Shown in pieces: positions 31,420 to 61,587 of a DNA stretch of 64,000 nucleotides (position 1 is its first letter; the number at the start of each line of letters is the position of its first letter). Below the pieces are notes generated by a model. It saw only the letters and a program-made list of their open reading frames with translations, made no database searches and was not told the origin of the DNA. Location of the stretch: assembly GCA_045807765.1 (NCBI GenBank), contig JBJMGU010000011.1, positions 25,398 through 89,397 on the forward strand. The letters are read 5' to 3'. Made by a program: the position numbers and the translations under genes. Origin of the DNA: Blastocatellia bacterium. GTDB lineage: Bacteria; Acidobacteriota; Blastocatellia; UBA7656.

Positions 31420-32469
31420 GTGGCGATCCGAGAGCTTGACGACATTCTTCTGCCGCTGGTCGAAGCCGGCGACACGGATGAGGCCGACACGCGGCTGGCG
31501 GCGGTATTGGCCGAGCATGCCGCGCCGGTCATTCGCGGCGTCGTCAAGAGCAAGCTGCGCGTGTCGCTAAGCCCCGCAGATGGCAGCGCCGCCAATCAAG
31601 ATGCGCTTGAGCTTGCAAACGACGTGCAGGCCGCGCTCGTCACCGAGTTGCGGCGATTGCGGAGCGCCGAGTCGCGGGAGCCGATCAGCGACTTTCGCGG
31701 TTATGTCGCGGTGCTCGCCTTCCACGCCTGCTACCGCTACCTGCGCCGCCGCAACCCCGAGCGCCACTCGCTGAAAAGTAAGATACGTTATATCCTTTCG
31801 CACGCCCCTGAGTTCGCACTGTGGCAGGATGCAAACGGCGCATGGCTGTGCGACAGCGCGGCGCGGCGCCGTTCGCCAACTCAGGCGGCGCGCGCAAAGC
31901 CGAGCGACGAAGCGTTGTCGGCGCGCCTGTTGTCGCGGCTGACCGATCCGGCCAGCACAGGACTCACTGACCTGCTCGCCGCCATCGTCGAAGAAGCGGC
32001 GGGCGCGATGGAGCTTGACGAGGTGGTCAGCTTGGTGGCCGCCTTGCAGGGCATTCGCCCTATAGCGGAACAGGGCGAAGGCGACGCAGAGGGCGAAGAC
32101 CGGCAGCGCCAGGAGCTAGCTGACCCGCGCGCAGACGTGGCCGCGGAAGTTGACCATCGCCTCTACCTTGAGCAACTGTGGCGGGAGATTGGCGATCTGC
32201 CGCCGCGCCAGCGCCTCGCCCTGTTGTTGAACCTGCGCGACGCGCAGGGGCGCGACGTGATCGCCTTATTGCCCATCACCGGCGTCGCCAGCCTGCGGCA
32301 GATCGCCGACGTGCTCGGCATACCCGCCGAAGAATTTGCCGCGCTGTGGAACGACTTGCCGATGGATGATGCGCGCATTGCCGAACGACTGGGCATCACG
32401 CGACAGCAGGTCATCAATCTGCGCAAGTCGGCACGTGAACGATTGATGCGGCGGATGAAATATCATTGA
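31420..32469 (+). CDS. ECF-like sigma-70 family factor with extended linker (GTG start)
   Basis: Region-2-like N-terminus and a C-terminal region 4 HTH (DLPPRQRLALLLNL...SLRQIADVLGIPAEEFAALWNDLP...RQQVINLRKSARERL). 349 aa. Confidence 0.6.
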   Translation: MAIRELDDILLPLVEAGDTDEADTRLAAVLAEHAAPVIRGVVKSKLRVSLSPADGSAANQDALELANDVQAALVTELRRLRSAESREPISDFRGYVAVLAFHACYRYLRRRNPERHSLKSKIRYILSHAPEFALWQDANGAWLCDSAARRRSPTQAARAKPSDEALSARLLSRLTDPASTGLTDLLAAIVEEAAGAMELDEVVSLVAALQGIRPIAEQGEGDAEGEDRQRQELADPRADVAAEVDHRLYLEQLWREIGDLPPRQRLALLLNLRDAQGRDVIALLPITGVASLRQIADVLGIPAEEFAALWNDLPMDDARIAERLGITRQQVINLRKSARERLMRRMKYH

Positions 32470-32529
32470 AGCCGCAGGCCGCGCGGTAATATGCGAAGCG
32501 CGGCGCGCCCTTAACCAGATGGGGAACTG

Positions 32530-33903
32530 ATGGCAGAGCACCTTTCACAAGAGACGCTGACGCGCTACGCGGGCCGTGCCCTGTCGGCGACCGAGTTGCT
32601 GGCGGCGGACGATCATCTCGCTGCCTGCGCGGCGTGTCGCGAGCGCCTTGAAGTTAAGAGCGAGGCTCGCGCCGTCGTTCAGGCGTTGCGCGCCGAATCT
32701 GCCGCGACTCCTTTCATGCACCTCGACTACGAGCAACTGGAAGCGGTCGTTGACGGCACTGCTGCCGAGGTCGAGCGCGAGATCGTCAGCAGCCACACAC
32801 AGCTCTGCGCGGCGTGCGCCGACGAGTTGAATGAGCTGATGGCGTTGAAGTCCCAGTTGCAAGCCCGCAGCGCGTCGCGACACGCCGCGGACGATGCAGT
32901 GAGTCAGCCGGGACGAGACGGCAATGCAGAACCTGCGCCGGTGGTCTCTTTGAAGGCATATCGGCAACAGCGCGAGGTGCGTCGTCAGCCGCGCGCCTGG
33001 CTAACGCGATGGGCGGCGGTGGCGGCGGTGCTGGCTGTCTGCGCGCTGGTCGCGTGGATGGTGTGGCGTCCGTCGCCGTCTGAGCAGGTGGCCGGCGTGA
33101 ATCAGAATTCCGGCGTGAGCGAACCGGCAACGACCGGCACATCAACCAACGATCAGAAAGCAGCGGCGAATCACAATGCTTCGTCGGGAACCGCAGAGCC
33201 GCAGCCGCCGGCTTCGCCATCTGCGGTTGTCGCGCTTAACGATGGAGCGCGACGTGTAACGCTCGACGCCGAAGGCAGGCTTGCGGGTTTCGATGGTCTT
33301 GCGCCTGAAGCGGCGGAGGCTGTGCGGCTCGCGCTTAAGCGGCAACGGGTCGAAGCGCCCGCTGGCTTAGCGGCTATCACTGAGAACGCCGGCACGTTGA
33401 TGAGCGGGGGCGGTGACGGCATCGCTTTCAAACTCATCAGCCCCATCGGCACCGCCGTGCAGAGCGCGCGGCCCGTATTCCGCTGGCAACCGCTCGCGGG
33501 CGCAACAAGCTATGTCGTGAAGGTGTTCGACGCAAACTTCAACCGCGTGGCGATGAGCGAGCCGCTCGCGACAACGACGTGGACGCCGAGCCAACCGCTT
33601 GCCGTTGGAGCAATCTATTCGTGGCAGGTGACGGCGGCGAAGGATGGCGGCGAAACGACTTCGCCTGCGCCGCCTGCGCCGCAAGCCCGCTTCAAAGTGA
33701 TCGAGCGCGCAAGGCTCGCCGAGCTGCGCCGCGCCGAACAGAGCTACCCGGATTCGCACCTGCTGCGCGGCGTCCTCTATGCGCGGGCCGGATTGTTAGA
33801 CGACGCCGAGCGCGAGCTGCAAGCATTGCTCAAGGCCAACCCCGCGAACGAAGCCGCGAGAAAACTGCTGGCCAGTGTGCATGCGCTGCGGCAGAAGCGA
33901 TAG
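32530..33903 (+). CDS. Putative anti-sigma factor (zf-HC2-like N-terminus, single TM, extracytoplasmic Fn3-like and TPR-like C-terminus)
   Basis: The Cys/His pattern is HLAACAACRERL...CAACADEL. There is a TM segment (WAAVAAVLAVCALVAWMVW) and a C-terminal TPR-like helix pair. It is adjacent to the sigma gene. Confidence 0.55.
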   Translation: MAEHLSQETLTRYAGRALSATELLAADDHLAACAACRERLEVKSEARAVVQALRAESAATPFMHLDYEQLEAVVDGTAAEVEREIVSSHTQLCAACADELNELMALKSQLQARSASRHAADDAVSQPGRDGNAEPAPVVSLKAYRQQREVRRQPRAWLTRWAAVAAVLAVCALVAWMVWRPSPSEQVAGVNQNSGVSEPATTGTSTNDQKAAANHNASSGTAEPQPPASPSAVVALNDGARRVTLDAEGRLAGFDGLAPEAAEAVRLALKRQRVEAPAGLAAITENAGTLMSGGGDGIAFKLISPIGTAVQSARPVFRWQPLAGATSYVVKVFDANFNRVAMSEPLATTTWTPSQPLAVGAIYSWQVTAAKDGGETTSPAPPAPQARFKVIERARLAELRRAEQSYPDSHLLRGVLYARAGLLDDAERELQALLKANPANEAARKLLASVHALRQKR

Positions 33904-43122: not shown

Positions 43123-43557
43123 AATCTTCTTCCGCAGTCGCAACTCCAGCCGATTCATCTCACCGTCGTCGGTTTCGTGGTCGTAACCGCAAAGGTGGAG
43201 CGTACCGTGGATGACCAGCTCGCTCAGTTCGCGGGCGAGCCCGTGGCCGGCTTCCCTGGCCTGACGCTGCGCCGTGTCGGTGGCGATCACAATGTCGCCG
43301 AGAAAGTCGGCGCTTTCAGATAAGCTGAAGCCCGCCTCGTCCTGCGCGTTTGCGACCGGGAACGATAGCACGTCGGTTGCGTAACCTTTGCCTCGGAATT
43401 CCCGATTCATTTTGCGGATGGCGCGGTCGCGCACAAAGGCGACGGTGAGTGCTGCCCCGCGCCAGCCCATCCCTTCGAGCGCGGCGGCGGCGACCCGCGC
43501 GATCTGCTCTGCATCTATGGCGCAGAGGCGTTGTCGGTTGACGACTTCAATCGCCAC
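43105..43557 (-). CDS. ybeY: rRNA maturation endoribonuclease YbeY
   Basis: 150 aa with the metal-binding motif HGTLHLCGYDH. Confidence 0.9.
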   Translation of the reverse strand: MAIEVVNRQRLCAIDAEQIARVAAAALEGMGWRGAALTVAFVRDRAIRKMNREFRGKGYATDVLSFPVANAQDEAGFSLSESADFLGDIVIATDTAQRQAREAGHGLARELSELVIHGTLHLCGYDHETDDGEMNRLELRLRKKILGAGD

Positions 43558-45907
43558 TGGCTTCCTTCAACGGCGCGACGGGCAACGCTTCGCTGCGTGT
43601 CGCCGCCGCCACATCAGCGGGCGTCACCTGCGACAGCACGGCGGGCGCGCCGGCGCGGTTGAAATCATAGCCCGGATAGGCGATGCGGTGATGATGAATG
43701 CCCATCAAAACTTTGACGAAGCTGTCGGCGATCATCTTCAACTCGCGTTGCGTGATGTCGCATTCATCGAACTGGCCGTCGTCGCGGATGCGCCCGATGA
43801 TCATCTCGATCATGTTGCGCAGCTTCGATGGGTTCGGCTCCTGCACCGTGCGCGCGGCGGCTTCGACCGAGTCGGCGATCATGATGATGGCGGCTTCCCT
43901 GGTTTGCGGCTTCGGGCCGGGATAACGGAACTCGCGCTCAAGCGCTGCATTGTCCATATCGCCGATCTGCTTGCGCGCCTTGTAGTAAAAATATTTCATC
44001 AGCCCGGTGCCGTGGTGCTGCGGAATGATGGCGATAATGCGCGGCGGCAGCTTGTGCTTGCGGGCCAGATCAACACCTTGCTTGACATGGTTGACCAGCA
44101 CAATCGATGACATCTTCGGCGATAACTGATCGTGACGGTTCTCCATGTAGGTCTGGTTTTCGACGAAGTAGGTGGGGCGCACGCTCTTGCCGATGTCGTG
44201 ATAATAGCAAGCGACGCGCGCAAACAGCGCGTCTGCGCCGATGGCTTCGGCCCCGGCTTCGGCCAGCAGTCCGACCATAATCGAGTGGTGATAGGTTCCC
44301 GGCGCACGCTCGGCCAGTTGCTTCAACAACGGCAGGTTGAGGTTTGATAGCTCCAGCAGCTTGATGCTCGTGGTAATCTCAAACAACCACTCGAACAGCG
44401 GCAGCAACAGCGACGCCACCATCGTCGCCAGCACGCCGCCCATAAAGCCGCAGACGACGTCGAAAAGCACCAGCCAGAAGCGCGCTTCGTTGGCGCCCAG
44501 CAGGTCGAGCGCCAGCGCCGTCGTCGCGTTGACGCCGCCGATCCATAAGCCCGCCCAGACCAGCGCCGTGCGGTCGCGGCAATCTTTCAGGTAATAGATT
44601 GCTCCGGCGCTCGACATCAGCGTGAACGCCGCCAGGTAGACATTGCCCGAATACATGCCGACGAAGACGGTCAGAAGCGCAGAGAAGACGAAGGCCGCGT
44701 GGGCGTCCGTAAGAATCGTCACCAGCACCGCGCCGACCGCCATCGGCGCGAGGTACTTGTAAGCGATCGGCGAATTGAACGGTGCGGTTGTCGCCCAACT
44801 GCTCATCGCCGCCGCCACCGCAAAGTATATCCGCCCGAGGCCCAGCGTGATGACGAAGCAGGCGATTTGCAAAAGGAAGTGGCGGCGCACGCGCAGATGT
44901 TGGCGCTGATAACGAACAAGGTACTGCCACAGCACCAGCGTTAGCATCATGACAATGATCACTGTGCCGCCGAATTCCAGGGCGCGCTGACCGATGGGCC
45001 GCGTGCGCGCCGCTTCCGCGAGCAGCAAGGCTTTTGCCGGGCTGACCGTTTCGCCGCGCGCAACAATCGGCTCGCCTTTTTTGGCGACGACGACGACCGG
45101 CTTGATCTGTTCGCGCGCGGCATCGCGGCGGCGTTGCGTTTCGCTTTCGTTGTACTCGATGTTCGGGACGATGAGCGAGCCGAGGATTTCGCCCATCAGC
45201 TTGCGCTCGCGCGGCTCGTAATCGGCGGGCCAGATGAGCTTCTCCGAGCGCAGCGAGGCGCTCGCCGTGAGCTTGTCGTTAATGCTGCCGAGATCGCTAA
45301 CGACGGTCTCCTGATCGTTACGCACGTCGCGGCGCATAATGGCGACGGCGCCGAGGCGGCGGAACTGGCTGCGGCTGCTGATGATCGGCGACATCGCCAC
45401 AGATTCCAGATGCTCGATCATCAGTTGTTCGAGCTCTGGGCTGAAGCGGTGGCGGGCGAGCACGGCGATCTGCTCGGGCTCAAGTGCGATGCCGCTGCGC
45501 TCTTCGATCTGGCCGTGCAGGTCGTCTATCGAAACGCCAGCCCCGGCTTCGCGCCCGGCGGTGAATAGCTCTTGCAGGCTGGCGACAGCGTCGCGGGCGC
45601 CCTTGGGATTGAAGTCAAAGACCAGCAGCATGGAGGCGGCAGCCTGATCGCGCAGCCGCCGGGTCTCGGCGGTGTCTTCGATCTTCACGTCTTCGGGCGC
45701 AATGATGTCGGCGGCGGCGACGCTGCCGACGGGAAGCTGTTGGATGAGTGGCCGCTGATAATCTCTGAGCAGCAGCATCGACAGCGCGACGATGATAAAC
45801 AACCCGACGCTGGCATCAATGATCGCCTGATCGGAAAGGCCCGCCGAAAAGCGTTTGACGCCATTGACGACCTCGCGCGGCTTCGATCTGGAAGATGCCT
45901 TTCGCAT
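43547..45907 (-). CDS. pgpH: Membrane-anchored HD-domain phosphohydrolase of the PgpH/YqfF (7TM receptor with intracellular HD hydrolase) family
   Basis: 7TM region followed by an HD/HDIG domain (HHSIMVGLLAEAG...YYHDIGK...IIPQHHGT). The true start is probably MRKASSRS at 45905-45907, because the ORF-track N-terminal extension runs into IS sequence. Confidence 0.8.
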   Translation of the reverse strand: MRKASSRSKPREVVNGVKRFSAGLSDQAIIDASVGLFIIVALSMLLLRDYQRPLIQQLPVGSVAAADIIAPEDVKIEDTAETRRLRDQAAASMLLVFDFNPKGARDAVASLQELFTAGREAGAGVSIDDLHGQIEERSGIALEPEQIAVLARHRFSPELEQLMIEHLESVAMSPIISSRSQFRRLGAVAIMRRDVRNDQETVVSDLGSINDKLTASASLRSEKLIWPADYEPRERKLMGEILGSLIVPNIEYNESETQRRRDAAREQIKPVVVVAKKGEPIVARGETVSPAKALLLAEAARTRPIGQRALEFGGTVIIVMMLTLVLWQYLVRYQRQHLRVRRHFLLQIACFVITLGLGRIYFAVAAAMSSWATTAPFNSPIAYKYLAPMAVGAVLVTILTDAHAAFVFSALLTVFVGMYSGNVYLAAFTLMSSAGAIYYLKDCRDRTALVWAGLWIGGVNATTALALDLLGANEARFWLVLFDVVCGFMGGVLATMVASLLLPLFEWLFEITTSIKLLELSNLNLPLLKQLAERAPGTYHHSIMVGLLAEAGAEAIGADALFARVACYYHDIGKSVRPTYFVENQTYMENRHDQLSPKMSSIVLVNHVKQGVDLARKHKLPPRIIAIIPQHHGTGLMKYFYYKARKQIGDMDNAALEREFRYPGPKPQTREAAIIMIADSVEAAARTVQEPNPSKLRNMIEMIIGRIRDDGQFDECDITQRELKMIADSFVKVLMGIHHHRIAYPGYDFNRAGAPAVLSQVTPADVAAATRSEALPVAPLKEASGD

Positions 45908-45919
45908 AAAATGATGAAT

Positions 45920-46984
45920 AGACCTCGTGCGCAGTAAGAATGACGGAGGCCCCAGCCTCACTAGTGGAGCATCAATCACTCAGGCTGCTGCTTGCATCAG
46001 TCGCTCCTGCGTCCGTAGATTCGCCAACCCGCACACCGTGCGGCAGACTTGATCGTATGCTTTTTCTCGATGCCGATACTTGCTGCCCATCACTTGATAC
46101 TTCTTCACTCGCGAGATCGCATGCTCAACGACGATTCGCCGCTTCGCCAGTCGCCGATTCCGCCGCTTCTGGCTGGCCGTCAATGGATGATGCTTACTTG
46201 GCTTCTTCGGCAATTCCACGGCCCGTTGCGGATAATGTTTGGCCAAGCCCATATATCCCTTGTCGGCAGCAATCTGCCAGTCGTCGGGCAAGGCGGCCTC
46301 CACCCCGGAGCGGTGAAACAAACTCAGGTCGTGGGTCCGCCCACCGACGCTCTTCGACACATGGCCAATCCAGCCGTTGGCCAAGACCGTCATCTGCACC
46401 TTGCGCGTATGCCGCTTCTTCTTGCCCGAATAGCGATGCTTGCGCTTGGTCTTGTTTTGCGGGCGGTTTATGGGCTGTTCGGTGGCATCAACAATGACCT
46501 CGCGCAACTCTGGATATTGCTTGAAAAGCTCGTCCAGGCTGCCAATCTTACGGCGGCGCTGGGCGGCGGGCGGCTTAGGGGCCAAGTGTCGGCGGGGCTG
46601 GGCTGGCACGGGCAACTGTTGTTCAAGAAGCGGCAAGAGCGTGCGCAGGTTGCGGGAGATGTTACTGGCATCAAGGCCAAAGAGATAGCCGAGCAGATCG
46701 TTGGTCAAGTAAAGACGCAAAAAGACCAGGGTGAGCAGGGTGCGGTCAGGCAGCGACAAGCGGAAGCCGCAGCCGCCACCGACTTGGCGCTGACGGTCTG
46801 GGCGGGCCAGGCGCTGGGCATTGAACTGTGGGTAGGCCTTGTGCATCTGGCTAAGCAAGCGATCAAACTGCGAGATGGACAGGCCCGCAAAGCGGAGAAA
46901 GTGCGGCGGACGTTTACGGAGCTTTTCGACGTTGAGCATGATTTTGTCAGTATGCAATAAGTTCGCTTATTGCGCACGAGGTCT
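45920..46984 (-). mobile_element. IS5-family (IS4/IS5 superfamily) insertion sequence, about 1065 bp, 19/20-bp terminal inverted repeats (TAGACCTCGTGCGCAGTAAG / CTTATTGCGCACGAGGTCTA), 3-bp AAT target duplication
   Basis: The TIRs and flanking AAT direct repeats were read directly. A single transposase ORF spans the element. The inner right end has the palindrome GCAATAAG-ttcg-CTTATTGC. Confidence 0.8.
45980..46957 (-). CDS. IS5-family DDE transposase
   Basis: 325 aa. The C-terminal signature RRNRRLAKRRIVVEHAISRVKKY (Y-R-E-K region) is typical of IS5/IS4 DDE transposases. The protein is basic and includes GKKKRHTRK. Confidence 0.8.
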   Translation of the reverse strand: MHTDKIMLNVEKLRKRPPHFLRFAGLSISQFDRLLSQMHKAYPQFNAQRLARPDRQRQVGGGCGFRLSLPDRTLLTLVFLRLYLTNDLLGYLFGLDASNISRNLRTLLPLLEQQLPVPAQPRRHLAPKPPAAQRRRKIGSLDELFKQYPELREVIVDATEQPINRPQNKTKRKHRYSGKKKRHTRKVQMTVLANGWIGHVSKSVGGRTHDLSLFHRSGVEAALPDDWQIAADKGYMGLAKHYPQRAVELPKKPSKHHPLTASQKRRNRRLAKRRIVVEHAISRVKKYQVMGSKYRHREKAYDQVCRTVCGLANLRTQERLMQAAA

Positions 46985-52414: not shown

Positions 52415-55400
52415 TTACTGCTGATTCAGTGCGTTCGGTAATGCCACGTCGCCCGCCTGTCCCCACTGCTTGAAGATATAGTTGCTATAGTTGGCCGACG
52501 ACTGCGGAATGATCCAGACGCCTTGCGAGGCGCGCCAGATGCCGGGGTCGGCCTTGCCATCACCATCGTAATCGGTCACGACCGGCGTATCGCCGATTGA
52601 CGGGAAGCCGGCGGGCACAAACAGCGGCTGGCCCGCCGCAAAGCTGTAGCTGTGGCTCGACAGCAGAATCGCATAGCTCGCGCTCTGGTTGCCGGCGGGC
52701 GGCTCAATGTAAGCCAGATCACTCAGGCCATCGCCGTCAAAGTCAGCGATGATGGGCGCACGCTCCGCCCCGCCCCAGTTGAAGAAGCGCGGGCTGCCGT
52801 AGCTGTAGCCTTGCGAGGACTGCAAGAAAGCCCACACGCCATTGCGGTAGTACCCGAAGTCGGCGCGGCCATCACCATCGATGTCGCCGACAACTGGCGT
52901 GTCGCCCGCCTGTCCCCACTGGCTGAAGATGTAGGTCGCGTAATTGGACGATGAGGTTGGGATCATCCAGACGCCCTGCGAGGCGCGCCAGATGGCCGGG
53001 TCGGCCTTGCCGTCGCCATCAAAGTCACCGACGACCGGCATATCGCCGATTGACGGGAAGCCGGCGGGCACAAATAGCGGCTGCCCGGTTGCGAAGCTGT
53101 AGCTGTGGCTCGACAGCAGGATGGCGTAAGCCGCGCTCTGGCCGCCCGCCGGCGGCTCAATGTAGCCCAGGTCAACTTTGCCGTCGCCGTCGAAGTCGGC
53201 GATGATGGGCGCACGCCCCGCCCCGCCCCAGCTATAGAAGAACCCGACATTGAAGCTCTCCGACGATTTGAGGAAGCCCCACAGGCCGTTGCGGTAATAG
53301 CCGATCTCCGACTTCAGATCGTCGTCGAAGTTGAGCTTGATCGACGGGCCAGCCTGCGTGACGGTGAAGGTCTGCCCGGCAATCGTCAGAGTGCCGACTC
53401 GCTGAGAGCCCGTCGTGTTGGCCATGACCGAATAATTGACTGAGCCGTTGCCTGTGCCGCTCGCGCCCGAAGTGATGGTGATCCAGGGCGTGTTGCTGAC
53501 GGCGTTCCAGTTGCAACCGCTGGCGGCGTTGACCATAACCGAGTTCGCGCCGGCATATTTGTTGAACATCGCGCTGCTGGTCGCTGGCGCGGCACTGCAT
53601 GCCCCCGCCTGATTGACCGTAAAGGTCTGGCCGGCGATGGTCATCGTGCCCTGACGCGCCGCGCTGCTATTGCCCGCAACGTTATAGTTGACGAAGCCAT
53701 TGCCATAATTGCTGCTGTAGGTAATGGTGATCCACGGCGCATTGCTGCTCGCCGTCCAGTTACACCCGGTCCCACGATTAACGTTCAACGAGCCGCTGCC
53801 GCCGCCGACAGGGAACGTCTGACTGGTCGGCGTCAGCGACGGCGGCGGGTTGGTCGCCGTCGAGGTCGTCATTGCTGAGTTGTTGTCGGGCATGGGATCG
53901 CTGCCCGAAGAAGTCACACTCACCGTGTTGCTGAACGTCGTGTTATCTGCCACTGAGCAGTTGACATAGGTGTAGATCGACATCGTCGCCGAAGCGCCGG
54001 ACTCTAATGTGGCGAAGGTGAAGGTGACATTGTTGCCGGCATGCGAACAATTATACGACGACGAATCGCAAGAATTGTAGACCACCGCCGACGGCAGATC
54101 ATCGTTGACAACGACGGACGAGGCGCGCTCTGGACCATTGTTGGTCAGCGTGATGCTATACATGAGGCCGTTGCCGGCGCTGATGGGGCTTGCAGTCGCC
54201 GTCATCGTGATGGCCAGATCCGAGGTGATGCTCGGCACCGCCACGAATTTCGAGATGAAGGCGTCGGAATTATAGTTGCTGCCCAACGTCGCCTGAAACG
54301 CGCCGGGCGTGACCGGGAAGTTCTGCGATTGTGTATTGCCGGTGACGTAAGCGTTGCCCCCGGCATCAATGGCAATGCCATAGGCGACATCACCATCATA
54401 GCCGCCGAGGTAAGACGAATAGCTCAGGCCGCTCGCCGTCGGGCTCAGCTTACTGACAAAGGCGTCGGTGCTATAGCTTGAGCCATACGACTGGTAGCCG
54501 CCCGGCGTCGTCGGAAAGTTTAACGATTGCGTATAGCCGGTGACATAGACGTTGCCGGCGCTGTCAGCGGCGAGCGCCGTTCCCTGATCGAAATTGCTGC
54601 CGCCCAGATAAGTGGAATAGCCGAGCGCCGTGCCCGTCGCATTCAGCTTGGTGATGAAGGCATCCATCGCGCCGCTCTCGCTGCCCGAATAGATCGCCGT
54701 CGGGGTCACCGGATCAATAGCCAGCGTGTTGATCACCAGGCCGGCCAGCCCTGCGCCGGCAGCCGCCCAGAGGTTGCCGCCATCGGTGGATTTAAAAACC
54801 CCGTTGCCGGTGCCGGCATAAAGAATCATTGAGTCGGTCGAAGACTGGGCGAGCGCATTCACCGACCGGTTGGTCAGACCATTATTGCTGCCGTTCCAGC
54901 TCTGGCCGCCGTCCGTGCTCCTGAATAAGCCATTTGCCGTGCCGGCGTAGATGACCGAAGACGCCGACGAATCGATCATCAAGGGCTTGATCCCGACGTT
55001 GATAAGGCCGGTGGGGCTCCAGTTGGTGCCCCCATTGGTGCTCTTATAGACGCCGCCATAACTGAGACCGGCGTAAATCGTCGCCGGTGCCAACGGATCA
55101 ATGGCCAGCGCGTTGATGTACGTCCCCTGCGACAGGCCATTGATCTTGGCCGCCCAGTTGGCGCCGCCATTGGTGGTCTTGAAGACGCCCTGATCGGTGC
55201 CGGCGTAGATGATCGAAGAGTTGGTCGGATCGATCACCAGGCTGTTGACCGTCATGCCATTCTCGCCGGTGTTGATCGCCCGCCAACTGGTGCCGCCATC
55301 GGTGCTTCTAAAGACGCCGCGCGAGTTCGTGCCCAGATAGATGGTCGTCGCCGTATTGGGATCAATGGCCAGCGACCGGATAGTCAAGTCGGTCAGGCCG

Positions 55401-57358
55401 GAATTAATCGCATTCCAGGTAGCGCCGCCGTTCGTGCTCTTGAACGCTCCGCCATTGTTGCCGTTGCCTCCTAAGGTGCCTGCATAGACGGTCGTCGGCG
55501 CCGAAGGGTGAATCGCCAGCGCCAGTATCGTGAAGCTGTTGATGCCGGTGTTGATCGCCGCCCAGCTCGCGCCGCTGTTGGTGGTCTTGGCGATGCCGCC
55601 ATCGGCGACGCGCACCACGCCCGGCGTCGTCGGGAAATTGACCGAGCTGGTCTGCCCAATCACGTAGGCTTCGCCCGTGGCCGACACATCAATGCCAAAT
55701 CCGCCGTCATCGCCACGGCCTCCCAGGTACGTCGAGTAGGCGAGCGCCGTGCCGATGTTGTTCAGCTTGGTCACGAAACCGTCACCGAGATTCGAATAAT
55801 TGCCGGACGCGCCGCCATAGGTCGTCTGGAACGCCCCCGGCGTCGTCGGGAAGCCGGTCGAAAGGGTCGTGCCGGCGACGTAGGCATTGCCCGAAGCGTC
55901 TACCTTAACGCCGTTCGCCGTATCGGCGCTTGTGCCGCCAAGGTAGGTCGAATAGGCCAGCGCTGTGCCCGCGTTGTTAAGCTTGGTCACGAAGGCGTCG
56001 CCATAGGGATAACTGCCGCTGGCATAGGTCGTCTGAAAGGCTCCGGGGGTCGTCGGGAAGTTGCCCGAATAGGTGTAGCCGACGACATAAGCGTTTCCCG
56101 ATGAATCCAGGGCAATGCTGTTCGCCTGATCGGAAGACGAGCCGCCCAAATAAGTCGAATAGATCAGCGCCGTGCCTGTCGGGTTTAGCTTGGTGACGAA
56201 AGCATCGCCGGGATACGAACCGCCTTGCAGCACCGTTTGAAATGCGCCCGGCGTCGTCGGAAAGTCGGTCGAACTGGTCGAGCCGGTGACATAAGCGTTG
56301 CCTGACGAATCAACGACCAGGCCATAGCCCAGGTCTTCTGACGCGCCACCGAGATAGGTCGAATAGACCAGCGCCGTACCGTCCGTATTCAGCTTGGTGA
56401 CGTACACATCCGAGGCGTTGGCATAGGTCGAGTCATAACCATCAATCGTGACCGGGAAGTTAAACGAGGATGTCCGTCCGGTGACATAGACATTACCCGA
56501 TGAGTCTACGGCGATGCTCCGGCCATCGTCGACGCTGCTGCCGCCGAGATAAGTCGAATAGCTCAAGACCGGATCGATCACCAGCCGCTTGCTGTGATCG
56601 TAAGCGCCCAGGGCAAACCCCACCTCGCGCCGCCCCTTCAGTTGGTAGCGCGCCTCGACCATCCGTTTGCCGCCGTCCGTCTCCTGATAAGCCACCGGCT
56701 TATGGAAACGCATCTCGCCGCCAGCCACACGCAGCACCAGATCGCCTTCAGCGCTGATGCGCAGCCGCCGCGCGCCTGTAAAGCCCAGCTTGATCGGCCT
56801 GGGATCGCTGCCCGCCGCGACGACGAAGTCATATTCGAGCTGCCGCTGATTGCCATAGTAGACGAGGCTGATGCCGGGATAGACATCGCCGTACTGCACG
56901 CGGGCGAAAGTCGGCACATCGGTATGCCAGTGGTTCGGGTCGCGTCCCGTGAAGTAATTGGCCGTGGCCGCGAGCGGCTCCAAGCCTTCGGGGCGAGCTG
57001 CCGGGTTGGCCTTGAGCATCTTCATGCGCACGGCGGCAGTGGTGGCGTGCGGCGGCGACAGGGCGAGGACGGCTTCGTCAGCAGTGAGAAAAAGCGTCGC
57101 CGCGCTGCTGCGCGAGATGAACTGGACGCGCGAGTCAATCTGGCCGCGATTGGCTTCAAAGCTCAGCGGCAGCTTGCCGTAAGCTTCGTCCAGCCGGGCG
57201 CGGTTTTGCGCGGCATTTAATGAAGCGGCCCTGGCAGGTGGGTGATCGGCTGTGGCGCGGTCAGACGCTTTGCCATGCCAGGCGACGAAACCAGTCAGGC
57301 CAAACAGTGTAAGCACAAGCAGACTGACGCGCCGATTCCAACGTCTTGTATTAAACAT
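52415..57358 (-). CDS. Giant secreted surface protein (1647 aa): SBBP beta-propeller repeats, BNR/Asp-box (sortilin-like) propeller, DUF11 domain, two BACON/Ig-like beta-sandwich domains, C-terminal FG-GAP/VCBS-like repeats (internally duplicated)
   Basis: Signal peptide. Repeated YSTYLGG...SGN.YVTG (SBBP). Six Asp-box repeats (STNGGATW, STDGGTSW, TTNGGANW and others). A DUF11-like segment (SITLTNNGPERASSVVVND). Two homologous modules of about 90 aa (C.W.A.S..PWITIT...GTLTIAGQTFTV.QAG). GDFDGDGKxD repeats. Confidence 0.8.
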   Translation of the reverse strand: MFNTRRWNRRVSLLVLTLFGLTGFVAWHGKASDRATADHPPARAASLNAAQNRARLDEAYGKLPLSFEANRGQIDSRVQFISRSSAATLFLTADEAVLALSPPHATTAAVRMKMLKANPAARPEGLEPLAATANYFTGRDPNHWHTDVPTFARVQYGDVYPGISLVYYGNQRQLEYDFVVAAGSDPRPIKLGFTGARRLRISAEGDLVLRVAGGEMRFHKPVAYQETDGGKRMVEARYQLKGRREVGFALGAYDHSKRLVIDPVLSYSTYLGGSSVDDGRSIAVDSSGNVYVTGRTSSFNFPVTIDGYDSTYANASDVYVTKLNTDGTALVYSTYLGGASEDLGYGLVVDSSGNAYVTGSTSSTDFPTTPGAFQTVLQGGSYPGDAFVTKLNPTGTALIYSTYLGGSSSDQANSIALDSSGNAYVVGYTYSGNFPTTPGAFQTTYASGSYPYGDAFVTKLNNAGTALAYSTYLGGTSADTANGVKVDASGNAYVAGTTLSTGFPTTPGAFQTTYGGASGNYSNLGDGFVTKLNNIGTALAYSTYLGGRGDDGGFGIDVSATGEAYVIGQTSSVNFPTTPGVVRVADGGIAKTTNSGASWAAINTGINSFTILALAIHPSAPTTVYAGTLGGNGNNGGAFKSTNGGATWNAINSGLTDLTIRSLAIDPNTATTIYLGTNSRGVFRSTDGGTSWRAINTGENGMTVNSLVIDPTNSSIIYAGTDQGVFKTTNGGANWAAKINGLSQGTYINALAIDPLAPATIYAGLSYGGVYKSTNGGTNWSPTGLINVGIKPLMIDSSASSVIYAGTANGLFRSTDGGQSWNGSNNGLTNRSVNALAQSSTDSMILYAGTGNGVFKSTDGGNLWAAAGAGLAGLVINTLAIDPVTPTAIYSGSESGAMDAFITKLNATGTALGYSTYLGGSNFDQGTALAADSAGNVYVTGYTQSLNFPTTPGGYQSYGSSYSTDAFVSKLSPTASGLSYSSYLGGYDGDVAYGIAIDAGGNAYVTGNTQSQNFPVTPGAFQATLGSNYNSDAFISKFVAVPSITSDLAITMTATASPISAGNGLMYSITLTNNGPERASSVVVNDDLPSAVVYNSCDSSSYNCSHAGNNVTFTFATLESGASATMSIYTYVNCSVADNTTFSNTVSVTSSGSDPMPDNNSAMTTSTATNPPPSLTPTSQTFPVGGGSGSLNVNRGTGCNWTASSNAPWITITYSSNYGNGFVNYNVAGNSSAARQGTMTIAGQTFTVNQAGACSAAPATSSAMFNKYAGANSVMVNAASGCNWNAVSNTPWITITSGASGTGNGSVNYSVMANTTGSQRVGTLTIAGQTFTVTQAGPSIKLNFDDDLKSEIGYYRNGLWGFLKSSESFNVGFFYSWGGAGRAPIIADFDGDGKVDLGYIEPPAGGQSAAYAILLSSHSYSFATGQPLFVPAGFPSIGDMPVVGDFDGDGKADPAIWRASQGVWMIPTSSSNYATYIFSQWGQAGDTPVVGDIDGDGRADFGYYRNGVWAFLQSSQGYSYGSPRFFNWGGAERAPIIADFDGDGLSDLAYIEPPAGNQSASYAILLSSHSYSFAAGQPLFVPAGFPSIGDTPVVTDYDGDGKADPGIWRASQGVWIIPQSSANYSNYIFKQWGQAGDVALPNALNQQ
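52440..53345. repeat. Tandem direct duplication (about 453-bp period, 2 copies) inside the 3' end of the giant surface-protein gene
   Basis: Protein segments ...GYYRNGLWGFLKSS...ILLSSHSYSFATGQPLFVPAGFPSIGD... and ...GYYRNGVWAFLQSS...ILLSSHSYSFAAGQPLFVPAGFPSIGD... are about 85% identical. Antisense ORFs 52652..52954 and 53105..53443 mirror the duplication. Confidence 0.8.
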
Positions 57359-57569
57359 GAATGATTTACTCCTTCAGGGCCGTGTTGAGCAGCAGCAAAG
57401 GTAAAAGTCTCTCATTGAATTAAGTATCGCGTCAAGCATGGACTTTTGGTCAATAGCACTTGACGGCTCGGCAGCGGGAAGCGGCTGTGATGGCGCTTGC
57501 CAATGAAATATTTTGTGATAAAACTCATATGTTCATTGGAATCAAACGTGGCGAAAGGAGGAAGTCAGT

Positions 57570-58382
57570 ATGCAGACTTTACGGCGTGGAAATACCGGCG
57601 CGGCAGTTGCCCAGTTGCAACAGCGGCTCAAAGACCTGGGGTTCAATCTCGGCGTGGTTGACGGCAATTTCGGGCCAGGCACCTAAGCCGCGGTGATCGC
57701 TTTTCAGAAGAGCAAGCAGCTTGGGGCCGATGGCGTCGCCGGGTCGCAGACGCTTGCGGCGCTCGACCTGACGACTGATGCTCCCGGCGATGCTCCCATT
57801 GAAGTCGGCGCTTCGGTCATCCCGCAGGTGACGGTCGAGGTGGTCTCAAAGATGTTCCCGCAGACCCCCGTCACCAATATCCGCACCAATCTGCCTTTTG
57901 TTTTGCAGGCGCTCGACGAGGCGGGATTGGCAGACAAGAACATGGTATTGATGGCGCTGGGGACAATTCGCGCCGAGACCGAAAGCTTCGAACCGATCAG
58001 TGAATTCAAGTCGAAGTTCAACACCTCGCAGGGCGGCCAGCCCTTCGACCTCTACGACAAGCGCAGCGATCTCGGCAATCAAGGCCGACCGGATGGTCCG
58101 AATTTCAAGGGCCGGGGGTTTGTCCAATTGACTGGCCGCAGCAATTACAAAACTCACGGCGCCGCCATCGGCGTCGACTTGATCAGTGTGCCCGACCGCG
58201 CCAATGATCCGATGACCGCCGCCCGCTTGCTGGCCAGTTTCATCAAGAGCCAGGAGCCAAAAATCAGACAGGCGCTGAATGCGGGTGACTTGAGGACCGC
58301 CCGCAAGCTGGTCAATGGCGGCTCGCACGGCCTGGATCGCTTTAGCGACGCTTATAACATCGGCCAGGGGCTGATCGATTGA
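57570..58382 (+). pseudogene. Peptidoglycan-binding (PG_binding_1) plus GH19-like muramidase/lysozyme gene interrupted by an in-frame TAA at 57684-57686 (possible pseudogene, sequencing error or readthrough)
   Basis: ATG at 57570 with strong SD AAGGAGGAA. N-terminal [64 protein letters not shown] matches the PG-binding motif with a stop where Glu/Lys is expected. The downstream ORF (57693..58382) contains GRGFVQLTGRSNY...DLISVPD, resembling the GH19 catalytic core. Confidence 0.55.
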
Positions 58383-59806: not shown

Positions 59807-60268
59807 GCCACAAAGGCACCAAGGCACAAAGATTCACAAAGATTCACATGATGAATCTTCTGATGCCGCTCTTAATGAAAGTCACTCTGAAGTTGATAAG
59901 AAAACCCAACCGTTTACCGGTGAGTTTAAGGTGACTGAGTACTTGCGCTTCCCAAACTGGATTGACTTGTTCAACGGCCTTCAATTCGCAGATAACCAGA
60001 TCATCTACTAGGACATCTAGCCGAAGCCCTTCGTTGAAAACGATCCCATCGTAAACAATCGGTATATCAACTTGTCTTTTGTATGGCAGTCCGCGCTTGC
60101 TCAATTCATGACAAAAGCATATTTCGTAAACCTTTTCCAACAAGCCAGGGTCTAGCTGCTTATGGACTGTATAAGCCGCCCCCACAATCGCTTTGCCGAC
60201 GTCTTCTTCTTGATGGGATAAAGGTATAAATCCCATAGTGATTCTTTGTGCCTTTGTGTCTTTGTGGC
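59807..60268. repeat. Hairpin element, family E, copy E2, whose about 390-bp loop is exactly the GxxExxY gene
   Basis: Left arm gccacaaaggcaccaaggcacaaagattcacaaagattcaca (59807-59848). Right arm tgattctttgtgcctttgtgtctttgtggc (60239-60268) is its imperfect reverse complement. The interior is AT-richer than the flanks. Confidence 0.75.
59844..60236 (-). CDS. GxxExxY protein (PD-(D/E)XK nuclease-like small protein family)
   Basis: 130 aa: MGFIPLSHQEEDVGKAIVGAAYTVHKQLDPGLLEKVYEICFCHELSKRGLPYKRQVDIPIVYDGIVFNEGLRLDVLVDDLVICELKAV... It contains the eponymous G-x-x-E-x-x-Y (GLLEKVY) and a D...(D/E)xK-like core. The ORF track extends the N-terminus to 60341 through the repeat arm. Confidence 0.7.
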   Translation of the reverse strand: MGFIPLSHQEEDVGKAIVGAAYTVHKQLDPGLLEKVYEICFCHELSKRGLPYKRQVDIPIVYDGIVFNEGLRLDVLVDDLVICELKAVEQVNPVWEAQVLSHLKLTGKRLGFLINFRVTFIKSGIRRFIM

Positions 60269-60276
60269 AAGCTGTT

Positions 60277-61587
60277 TTACAGCGCCGCGAACGCGCCGTC
60301 GAGCGCCGTGACCAGCTCGTCAATATCCGCTTTGCTCGCAATCAACGGCGGCCCCAGGCGGATGACGTTGCCGTAAAGGCCGCCCTTGCCAATCAGCACG
60401 CCGCGCCGCCGCGTTTCTTCAAAGACACGCACTACCGATTCGGCGTCAGGCTGTTTGGTCGTGCGGTCTTTGACGCATTCAATCGCCTGCATCAAGCCCA
60501 TGCCGCGCACATCGCCAATCACCTGATACTTGTCTTTCAGCTCTTCGAGCCGTGCGCGCAAGTAGCCGCCGACTTCGCGGGCGTTGCGCGGCAGGTCGTT
60601 CTCTTCGATGACGCGGATCGTCGCCAGCGCCGCCGCCGCTGTCACAGGGTTGCCGCCAAAAGTCGAAAACGTCAGCGACGGGTACTTGTCGGCGATCTCC
60701 GACAGCGCCGTCGTGCAGCCGATGGGCGAGCCGTTCGCCATGCCTTTGGCAAAGGTCATCACTTCGGGCTCGACTTCCCAATGCTCGATGCCGCACCAGT
60801 GATCGCCTGTGCGTCCCCAGCCGGTCTGCACTTCGTCGCAGATGTAGATGCCGCCGTAACGGCGAACGATTTCAGTGACCACTTTGAAATAATCTTTCGG
60901 CGGCGTGATGAAGCCGCCGACTCCCATGATCGGCTCGGCGATGAAGGCGGCGATCTCTCCCGTTGTCGAAGTCTGAATCAGCTCTTCGACATCGCGGGCG
61001 CATTCCAGGGCGCACGATTCGGGATTGAGGTTGAACGGGCAGCGATAACAATAAGGCGCATGGGCATGGACGATGCCGGGGACCAGCGACGGCCCGTGCT
61101 TCCACGTCGAATGCCCGGTCGCCGTCATGTTCATCACCGAGCGCCCGTGATAGGCGTGGCGCAGGGCGATGATTTCGGTGCGCCCGGTGTAGAGCCGCGC
61201 CAGCACCATCGCGGTCTCGTCGGCTTCGGTGCCGCTGCTGGTGAAGAAGCTCTTCTGCAAGCGGCCCGGCGTAATCTCGGCCACTTTCGCGGCCAGATCG
61301 GCTTGCGGGCGGTTGATGTAGAGCGTCGAGGTATGAGCGATGGCGCCGGCCTGACGGCTGATGGCTTCGACGACTTCCGGGCGCGCGTGGCCGACCGATG
61401 TCGTCAACACGCCGCCAAAGCAGTCGAGGTAGCGGTTGCCTTCGGTATCCCAGACCTGCATGCCTTCGCCGCGTTCGAGCGCGATTGGCTCTTTATAATA
61501 AGTCGCAGCGCAGGGCCAGATGTACTCTTTCTGTTTGGCAACGAGGTCGTCGGTTGCAGGTTGCGTCGTCGGATTTTGTGCGGCCAT
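60277..61587 (-). CDS. Class-III PLP-dependent aminotransferase (beta-alanine/omega-amino acid--pyruvate transaminase-like, AGXT2-like)
   Basis: 436 aa with the PLP-lysine region TFAKGMANGSP and conserved DEVQTGWGRTG. Confidence 0.85.
   Translation of the reverse strand: MAAQNPTTQPATDDLVAKQKEYIWPCAATYYKEPIALERGEGMQVWDTEGNRYLDCFGGVLTTSVGHARPEVVEAISRQAGAIAHTSTLYINRPQADLAAKVAEITPGRLQKSFFTSSGTEADETAMVLARLYTGRTEIIALRHAYHGRSVMNMTATGHSTWKHGPSLVPGIVHAHAPYCYRCPFNLNPESCALECARDVEELIQTSTTGEIAAFIAEPIMGVGGFITPPKDYFKVVTEIVRRYGGIYICDEVQTGWGRTGDHWCGIEHWEVEPEVMTFAKGMANGSPIGCTTALSEIADKYPSLTFSTFGGNPVTAAAALATIRVIEENDLPRNAREVGGYLRARLEELKDKYQVIGDVRGMGLMQAIECVKDRTTKQPDAESVVRVFEETRRRGVLIGKGGLYGNVIRLGPPLIASKADIDELVTALDGAFAAL

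Follow-up and report, generated by a model that had tools for sequence, protein, structure and literature searches.

A premature TAA codon in the peptidoglycan-binding domain of a chromosomal GH19 peptidoglycan hydrolase gene of a Blastocatellia bacterium: probably a recent nonsense allele

The closest described relatives of the gene analyzed here belong to the endolysin subfamily of glycoside hydrolase family 19 (ELYS in the GH19 Engineering Database), which includes the SPN1S endolysin (PDB entry 4ok7), PaGH19Lys from a P. aeruginosa pyocin cluster (9eoi) and PWe2 from a soil metagenome (9ms7). Residues E49, E58 and T130 of the SPN1S endolysin serve as acid, base and water-coordinating residue in this subfamily, and PG_binding_1 is among the accessory modules known from ELYS groups (PMC8547705). 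Experiments have identified PaGH19Lys as a muramidase (PMC12329726). With these enzymes the protein under study shares the α-helical GH19 fold, the Glu/Glu/Thr core and the lack of a signal peptide, yet it is only 17–22% identical to the solved ELYS structures and does not contain the inserted three-helix bundle of the SPN1S endolysin. Its gene lies in a stretch of 64,000 nucleotides (hereafter, the window) from a Blastocatellia MAG, where, unlike the genes of the described enzymes, it stands alone in chromosomal synteny, outside any phage, prophage or pyocin cluster and with no holin or spanin evident. Furthermore, it differs from them in being interrupted by a stop codon.

The gene forms one frame of 270 codons on the forward strand, running from ATG 57570 to TGA 58380–58382, whose sole internal stop is the TAA at codon 39 (local peptide FGPGT*AAV; Table 1). 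In the ORF list, which was made mechanically, this frame appears split into an ORF of 38 and an ORF of 229 amino acids, the latter comprising the final helix of the peptidoglycan-binding domain along with the linker and the complete GH19 domain. With the stop read as X, the Pfam profile PG_binding_1 matches with an E-value of 4.4e-19 and 68.8 bits (gathering cut-off 23) over all of its 57 positions and hence on both sides of the TAA, which excludes a chance juxtaposition of two ORFs. The protein is thus a member of the PG_binding_1 family, and in the encoded form the stop divides its domain. The original prediction of an in-frame TAA within the peptidoglycan-binding motif of an endolysin-like gene is thereby confirmed, as is its second part, that the frame runs on past the TAA into a GH19-like region, since it stays open up to the terminal TGA.

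Table 1. Positions within the window of the interrupted hydrolase gene, its domains and its upstream signals
Feature	Position	Strand	Remarks
5′ fragment	57570–57686	+	38 sense codons (first half of PG_binding_1), then the premature TAA
Premature stop TAA, codon 39	57684–57686	+	GAA (Glu) in orthologues; G→T at 57684
PG_binding_1 domain, interrupted by the stop	57594–57764	+	Residues 9–65 of the joined product; Pfam PF01471
Downstream ORF, same frame, 229 codons	57693–58382	+	Starts at GTG, 6 nt past the stop
GH19 endolysin-type catalytic domain (predicted)	57831–58379	+	Residues about 88–270; Pfam, PDB profile matches, Foldseek
Catalytic codons (predicted)	Glu136 57975–57977; Glu145 58002–58004; Thr188 58131–58133	+	
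143-aa remnant ORF	57951–58382	+	Starts at ATG 57951; public annotation NCBI MFL6273829.1
Shine-Dalgarno sequence AAGGAGG	57555–57561	+	8 nt before ATG 57570
Conserved upstream block, putative promoter/operator	57493–57530	+	Near-invariant in the window, L002 and L005

For the region downstream of the stop, the Pfam profile GH19 (PF00182) gives a marginal match (26.4 bits; gathering cut-off 25.5) that is restricted to profile positions 103–148. The family profile matches the SPN1S endolysin 4ok7 (4e-16), LysA (9hqw) and PaGH19Lys (9eoi) in the PDB, whereas classical GH19 chitinases are matched more weakly (1dxj, 2.4e-6); PHROG 181, 'endolysin', is matched at 5e-31. Residues E136, E145 and T188 align with E49, E58 and T130 of the SPN1S endolysin, once the 15 residues by which a tag shifts the numbering of the 4ok7 chain are taken into account, and are invariant across 121 sequences. 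An AlphaFold2 model of the 229-aa ORF has a mean pLDDT of 91.6, and its 50 best PDB matches in Foldseek are all GH19 or GH19-like, the best being 9ms7 (PWe2) with a TM-score of 0.70 when normalized to the query and 0.88 when normalized to the target, and an rmsd of 2.1 Å. By profile, catalytic triad and modeled α-helical, lysozyme-like fold the region is a predicted GH19 domain, and the combination of PG_binding_1 with a GH19-type, lysozyme-like domain, as first read, is supported by Pfam, PDB profiles and Foldseek alike. Judged from its sequence, the restored product is a chromosomal peptidoglycan hydrolase composed of PG_binding_1 and an endolysin-type GH19 domain; the latter is probably a muramidase, given its closer likeness to endolysin-type than to chitinase-type members. 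The N-terminus leads directly into the peptidoglycan-binding domain, with no signal peptide, and signal peptides are likewise absent throughout the GH19 hydrolase family examined.

A search with the 270-aa product in which Glu had been restored at position 39 yielded more than 4,700 homologues, which are uninterrupted and about 265–290 aa long. The best 120, named 'peptidoglycan-binding protein' or 'putative chitinase' at their source, are all uninterrupted, measure about 261–338 aa and nearly all span the whole query. Orthologues of the gene, found in Blastocatellia, Pyrinomonadaceae, Accumulibacter, Desulfuromonadaceae and Kiloniellaceae (for example HKQ08044.1, P0002 in GCA_035248905.1), are 60–91% identical over the full 270 residues and show the same two-domain layout, all without interruption. 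Within Blastocatellia they also keep the same neighbours, and the TAA at codon 39 is peculiar to the copy in the window. Among the best 120 homologues, this column holds E in 53, K in 47, T in 9, R in 7, Q in 2, and G and A in one each, which bears out the motif FGPxT[EK]AAV that had been expected here. The sense codon itself is GAA in all three of the closest orthologues for which DNA is at hand, L001, L002 and L005 (91%, 82% and 79% identity), so that the change in the window is a single G→T; the proposed origin of the TAA from a sense codon by one base change thus holds, with GAA as its starting point.

Two proteins that cluster at 90% identity with the closest homologue, P0001, date and locate this change further. 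P0131, from a protein-level soil assembly (SRR5947208), is identical to residues 10–163 of the window copy except for Glu at position 39 and carries the window-specific residues S59, A81, T102 and D116; the change hence post-dates even a very close relative. Past residue 163, P0131 diverges, switching to the sequence of another lineage, and is perhaps a chimeric protein-level assembly. The other member, P0121, is MFL6273829.1 itself ('MAG: glycoside hydrolase family 19 protein [Blastocatellia bacterium]'), is encoded on a contig of 96 kb and is 100% identical to residues 128–270. As the public annotation of what is evidently the MAG analyzed here consists of the 143-aa remnant only, the stop is present in the deposited assembly; by all appearances the interruption is part of that MAG, and nothing but the remnant passed through its annotation pipeline. 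Going by the model, this remnant would miss the first GH19 helices and is unlikely to be functional. Exact-pattern scans of genome and metagenome contigs, with NNN in place of the codon, gave no match, and neither did exact-protein look-ups of the 229-aa, 38-aa and 143-aa ORFs and of the neighbouring aminotransferase in the collections searched. Protein-seeded scans found nothing above 90% identity at the DNA level.

The family varies in its N-terminal part. In L022 and L090–L098, the same GH19 domain is joined to an SH3-like module (RFVVIARDGLRLRSGPS...LVDLEGDGKADGF) instead of PG_binding_1, and L086 consists of the GH19 catalytic domain with no N-terminal module. The orthologue from a Pyrinomonadaceae MAG at L020:6876–7675 extends over two frames and contains query residues 179–214 twice, which reflects a frameshift or duplication, be it in another disrupted copy or as an assembly artefact.

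The hydrolase gene is surrounded by genes for an ECF sigma factor, a Ser/Thr kinase, QueG, a giant surface protein (divergent) and a dihydropyrimidinase-like amidohydrolase (convergent), followed by genes for a PD-(D/E)XK protein, a class-III aminotransferase, a GT2 and an aldehyde dehydrogenase. The same gene order surrounds the orthologues L002 and L005 in two other Blastocatellia assemblies, the conserved series being QueG, giant SBBP protein, hydrolase, dihydropyrimidinase-like amidohydrolase and aminotransferase, and no phage genes were found within 10 kb of the hydrolase gene. Members of the family from Accumulibacter and from a further genome of 5 Mb likewise stand alone in non-phage surroundings. 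This conserved synteny, together with the lack of nearby phage genes, identifies a chromosomal gene. An endolysin of a prophage or lysis cassette, as which the gene had originally been framed with a prophage context in mind, is rejected on account of its kinase, QueG, SBBP and amidohydrolase neighbours and of the synteny in L002 and L005. No paralogue that could compensate for the hydrolase was found within the window. Upstream of the hydrolase gene in Accumulibacter lies a chemoreceptor gene, which is split into ORFs of 227 and 353 aa in L064:6114–7855 and forms a single gene of 680 aa in the near-identical L063:5813–7855.

The giant gene (52415–57358) encodes an SBBP/DUF7948/DUF11/BACON/FG-GAP surface protein of 1,647 aa, stands between QueG and the hydrolase gene and is found there in L005 also. 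It is absent at that position in L002; its adjacency to the hydrolase gene thus carries no functional weight, and the link that the original prediction had drawn between the two did not hold.

Other features of the window were noted in passing. The PD-(D/E)XK_3 gene (59844–60341, reverse strand) sits between the amidohydrolase and aminotransferase genes and has a GC3 of 0.49, compared with 0.71–0.85 in all its neighbours. Since the same slot holds a PIN/NikA-like toxin-antitoxin pair in L005 and is empty in L002, it has the appearance of a small hot spot for insertions. An IS-type transposase gene (DDE_Tnp_4 and HTH_Tnp_4; 45980–46957, reverse strand) abuts a 7TM-HD receptor gene (43547–45979). 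The region 31420–33903 contains a long forward-strand ORF with no Pfam match (31420–32469), and its reverse strand shows a coding-like GC3 (0.77–0.86) in stretches between stops, so that the gene calls are uncertain there.

Upstream of the hydrolase gene, the Shine-Dalgarno sequence AAGGAGG is the longest such match among the 35 candidate ORF starts in the window, in agreement with the claim that it ranks among the strongest, and it is kept in the orthologous loci L002 and L005. That the gene has a promoter of its own, as had also been proposed, finds divided evidence. A strict scan for consensus sigma-70 sites upstream of the gene found none, but a block of 38 bp is almost invariant across the window, L002 and L005, where the proteins are only 79–82% identical and the intergenic DNA flanking the block has diverged. 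The block contains TTGCCA (57497–57502) and TAAAAC (57519–57524), separated by a 16-nt spacer, and, by this pattern of conservation, may serve the hydrolase gene as promoter or operator. A CRP/FNR-like motif, TGTGA-N6-TCATA (57514–57529), overlaps it.

Apart from its stop codon, the gene looks intact. The dN/dS ratio between the window copy and L001 is 0.17, with 0.175–0.276 for pairs of intact orthologues, and changes polarised by an outgroup amount to 9 synonymous and 13 non-synonymous on the lineage of the window, compared with 11 and 12 on that of L001. There is no second stop and no frameshift in the 270-codon frame, and every residue that is invariant in the family is kept. With a dN/dS like that of intact pairs and no second lesion, the change is either very recent or an artefact. 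In terms of pseudogene status, a disabling lesion is thus present (codon 39 of 270), and neither relaxed selection nor secondary lesions were found. The gene resembles ordinary nonsense pseudogenes in that a single premature stop contrasts with intact orthologues in a non-essential accessory gene, but it differs from them in lacking any secondary decay; if real, the lesion is extremely young.

We favor the reading that the TAA is a real and very recent nonsense allele of a chromosomal GH19 peptidoglycan hydrolase gene, to which we assign a probability of roughly 0.6. A single, very recent G→T transversion would have turned the Glu codon GAA at position 39 into TAA in this Blastocatellia (Acidobacteriota) MAG. 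Ribosomes loaded at the strong Shine-Dalgarno sequence would then terminate after 38 residues, and the full-length enzyme would not be made; reinitiation at GTG 57693 might at most yield small amounts of an enzyme that is truncated at its N-terminus and retains its GH19 domain intact. The gene would thus be a young pseudogene or a null or hypomorphic allele, possibly still segregating in the population. We infer that the change is present in cells beyond the assembly and that it affects expression in this manner. Two considerations speak for a real allele, namely that young nonsense alleles of accessory genes are common and that the comparable genes of the window are full length. When ORF lengths across the window were compared with those of syntenic orthologues, the kinase (919 aa), QueG (405 aa), the giant protein (1647 aa), the amidohydrolase (485 aa), the aminotransferase (436 aa) and the GT2 (412 aa) all proved full length, and no gene splits of the frameshift type were seen in the 64 kb; the assembly is hence not generally error-prone. 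Window-wide scans of composition and codon usage for further in-frame stops did not discriminate, since antisense frames appear coding at 62% GC, and the known stop itself was not flagged by them. Against an inactivation counts that the hydrolase is conserved in position and sequence and under purifying selection, so that its loss is not obviously neutral. A recent inactivation, one of three explanations originally offered, is on this view the most probable of them.

The second of these explanations, an error of sequencing, assembly or consensus, survives next best, and we regard it as a serious though distinctly less probable alternative; its weight relative to the favored reading is an estimate, not a measurement. 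According to it, the organism has GAA and an intact gene for 270 aa, and the T at 57684 stems from low coverage, a damaged base or a strain bubble that was resolved wrongly in the MAG. The observations fit such an error just as they fit a young allele, since a consensus error would produce exactly this picture, with one lesion, a gene otherwise free of decay and GAA in the closest relatives. Indeed, the lesion consists of a single base, the gene is otherwise perfectly conserved and under purifying selection, the nearest relatives, including P0131 with its identity over residues 10–163, encode Glu at position 39, and the window comes from a MAG. G→T is a classic oxidative-damage artefact of short-read libraries, and likely artefactual splits occur in other MAGs, as in the frame change and duplicated segment of L020 and in the MCP gene of L064. 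However, no other broken gene was noticed in the 64 kb, which implies a low per-base error rate, and at such a rate we estimate a stop-creating error to be rarer in one window than a genuine nonsense allele. Furthermore, the depositor's pipeline kept the stop.

A real mutation at a locus that is nevertheless functional appears improbable. Here, translation would terminate at the TAA and reinitiate at GTG 57693, giving a 229-aa enzyme that keeps the GH19 domain but has no working peptidoglycan-binding module, that is, a hydrolase of lower dose and no longer targeted. The GTG is suitably placed, in frame and 6 nt past the stop, and the product is predicted to fold confidently as a complete GH19 domain (pLDDT 91.6) with the E/E/T triad. 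Natural relatives without PG_binding_1 exist, both in catalytic-only form (L086) and with the SH3-like module (L022, L090–L098), so the GH19 catalytic domain does not need the module. Yet no sequence resembling a Shine-Dalgarno site precedes the GTG, with only an AGG 13 nt upstream, and none of the three DNA orthologues (L001, L002, L005) and none of the 120 homologues shows a split arrangement. The lack of decay downstream of the TAA, which would suit a functional product, is equally explained by the youth of the lesion. Less probable still is the broader proposition that a real TAA is tolerated because a small dose of enzyme is supplied by either reinitiation at the GTG or rare readthrough of UAA; if true, the gene would be a natural dose-attenuated allele of a chromosomal GH19 autolysin with no signal peptide.

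The third original explanation, deliberate low-level readthrough, is very improbable. It holds that a programmed or selected readthrough or recoding of the stop keeps the dose of a potentially lethal autolysin low, and the circumstances that suit it are a strong Shine-Dalgarno sequence, a potentially toxic product with no signal peptide and a frame that is open and conserved past the stop. However, a TAA at codon 39 is absent in every relative examined, P0131 included, and 120 of the 120 homologues have a sense residue there. The UAA-G context is the very signal that ends the neighbouring giant gene, and UAA ends 9 of the 31 ORFs of the window. In bacteria, the known cases of readthrough mostly concern UGA or UAG. 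Neither a tRNA nor a suppressor was found in the window; the 87 nt that follow the stop show no more structure than shuffled sequences (z = +0.44), and no Rfam element is present. The stop is thus unconserved and has neither a leaky context nor a stimulatory RNA structure downstream, and deliberate readthrough was not borne out. A reassigned genetic code or a suppressor is rejected, since TAA serves as a normal terminator in the window and no tRNA is encoded there.

Altogether, what we describe is a known family, already so named in the public record, with an ordinary single-base disruption. The locus should be labeled as a disrupted PG_binding_1/GH19 peptidoglycan hydrolase, either a pseudogene or a possible assembly error; its present entry as a 143-aa 'GH19 family protein' is not an apt label, and the locus should not be taken for a prophage marker. 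While this matters little beyond annotation, the wider point concerns the family, which constitutes a large group of chromosomal endolysin-like GH19 enzymes that have no signal peptide and no nearby holin.
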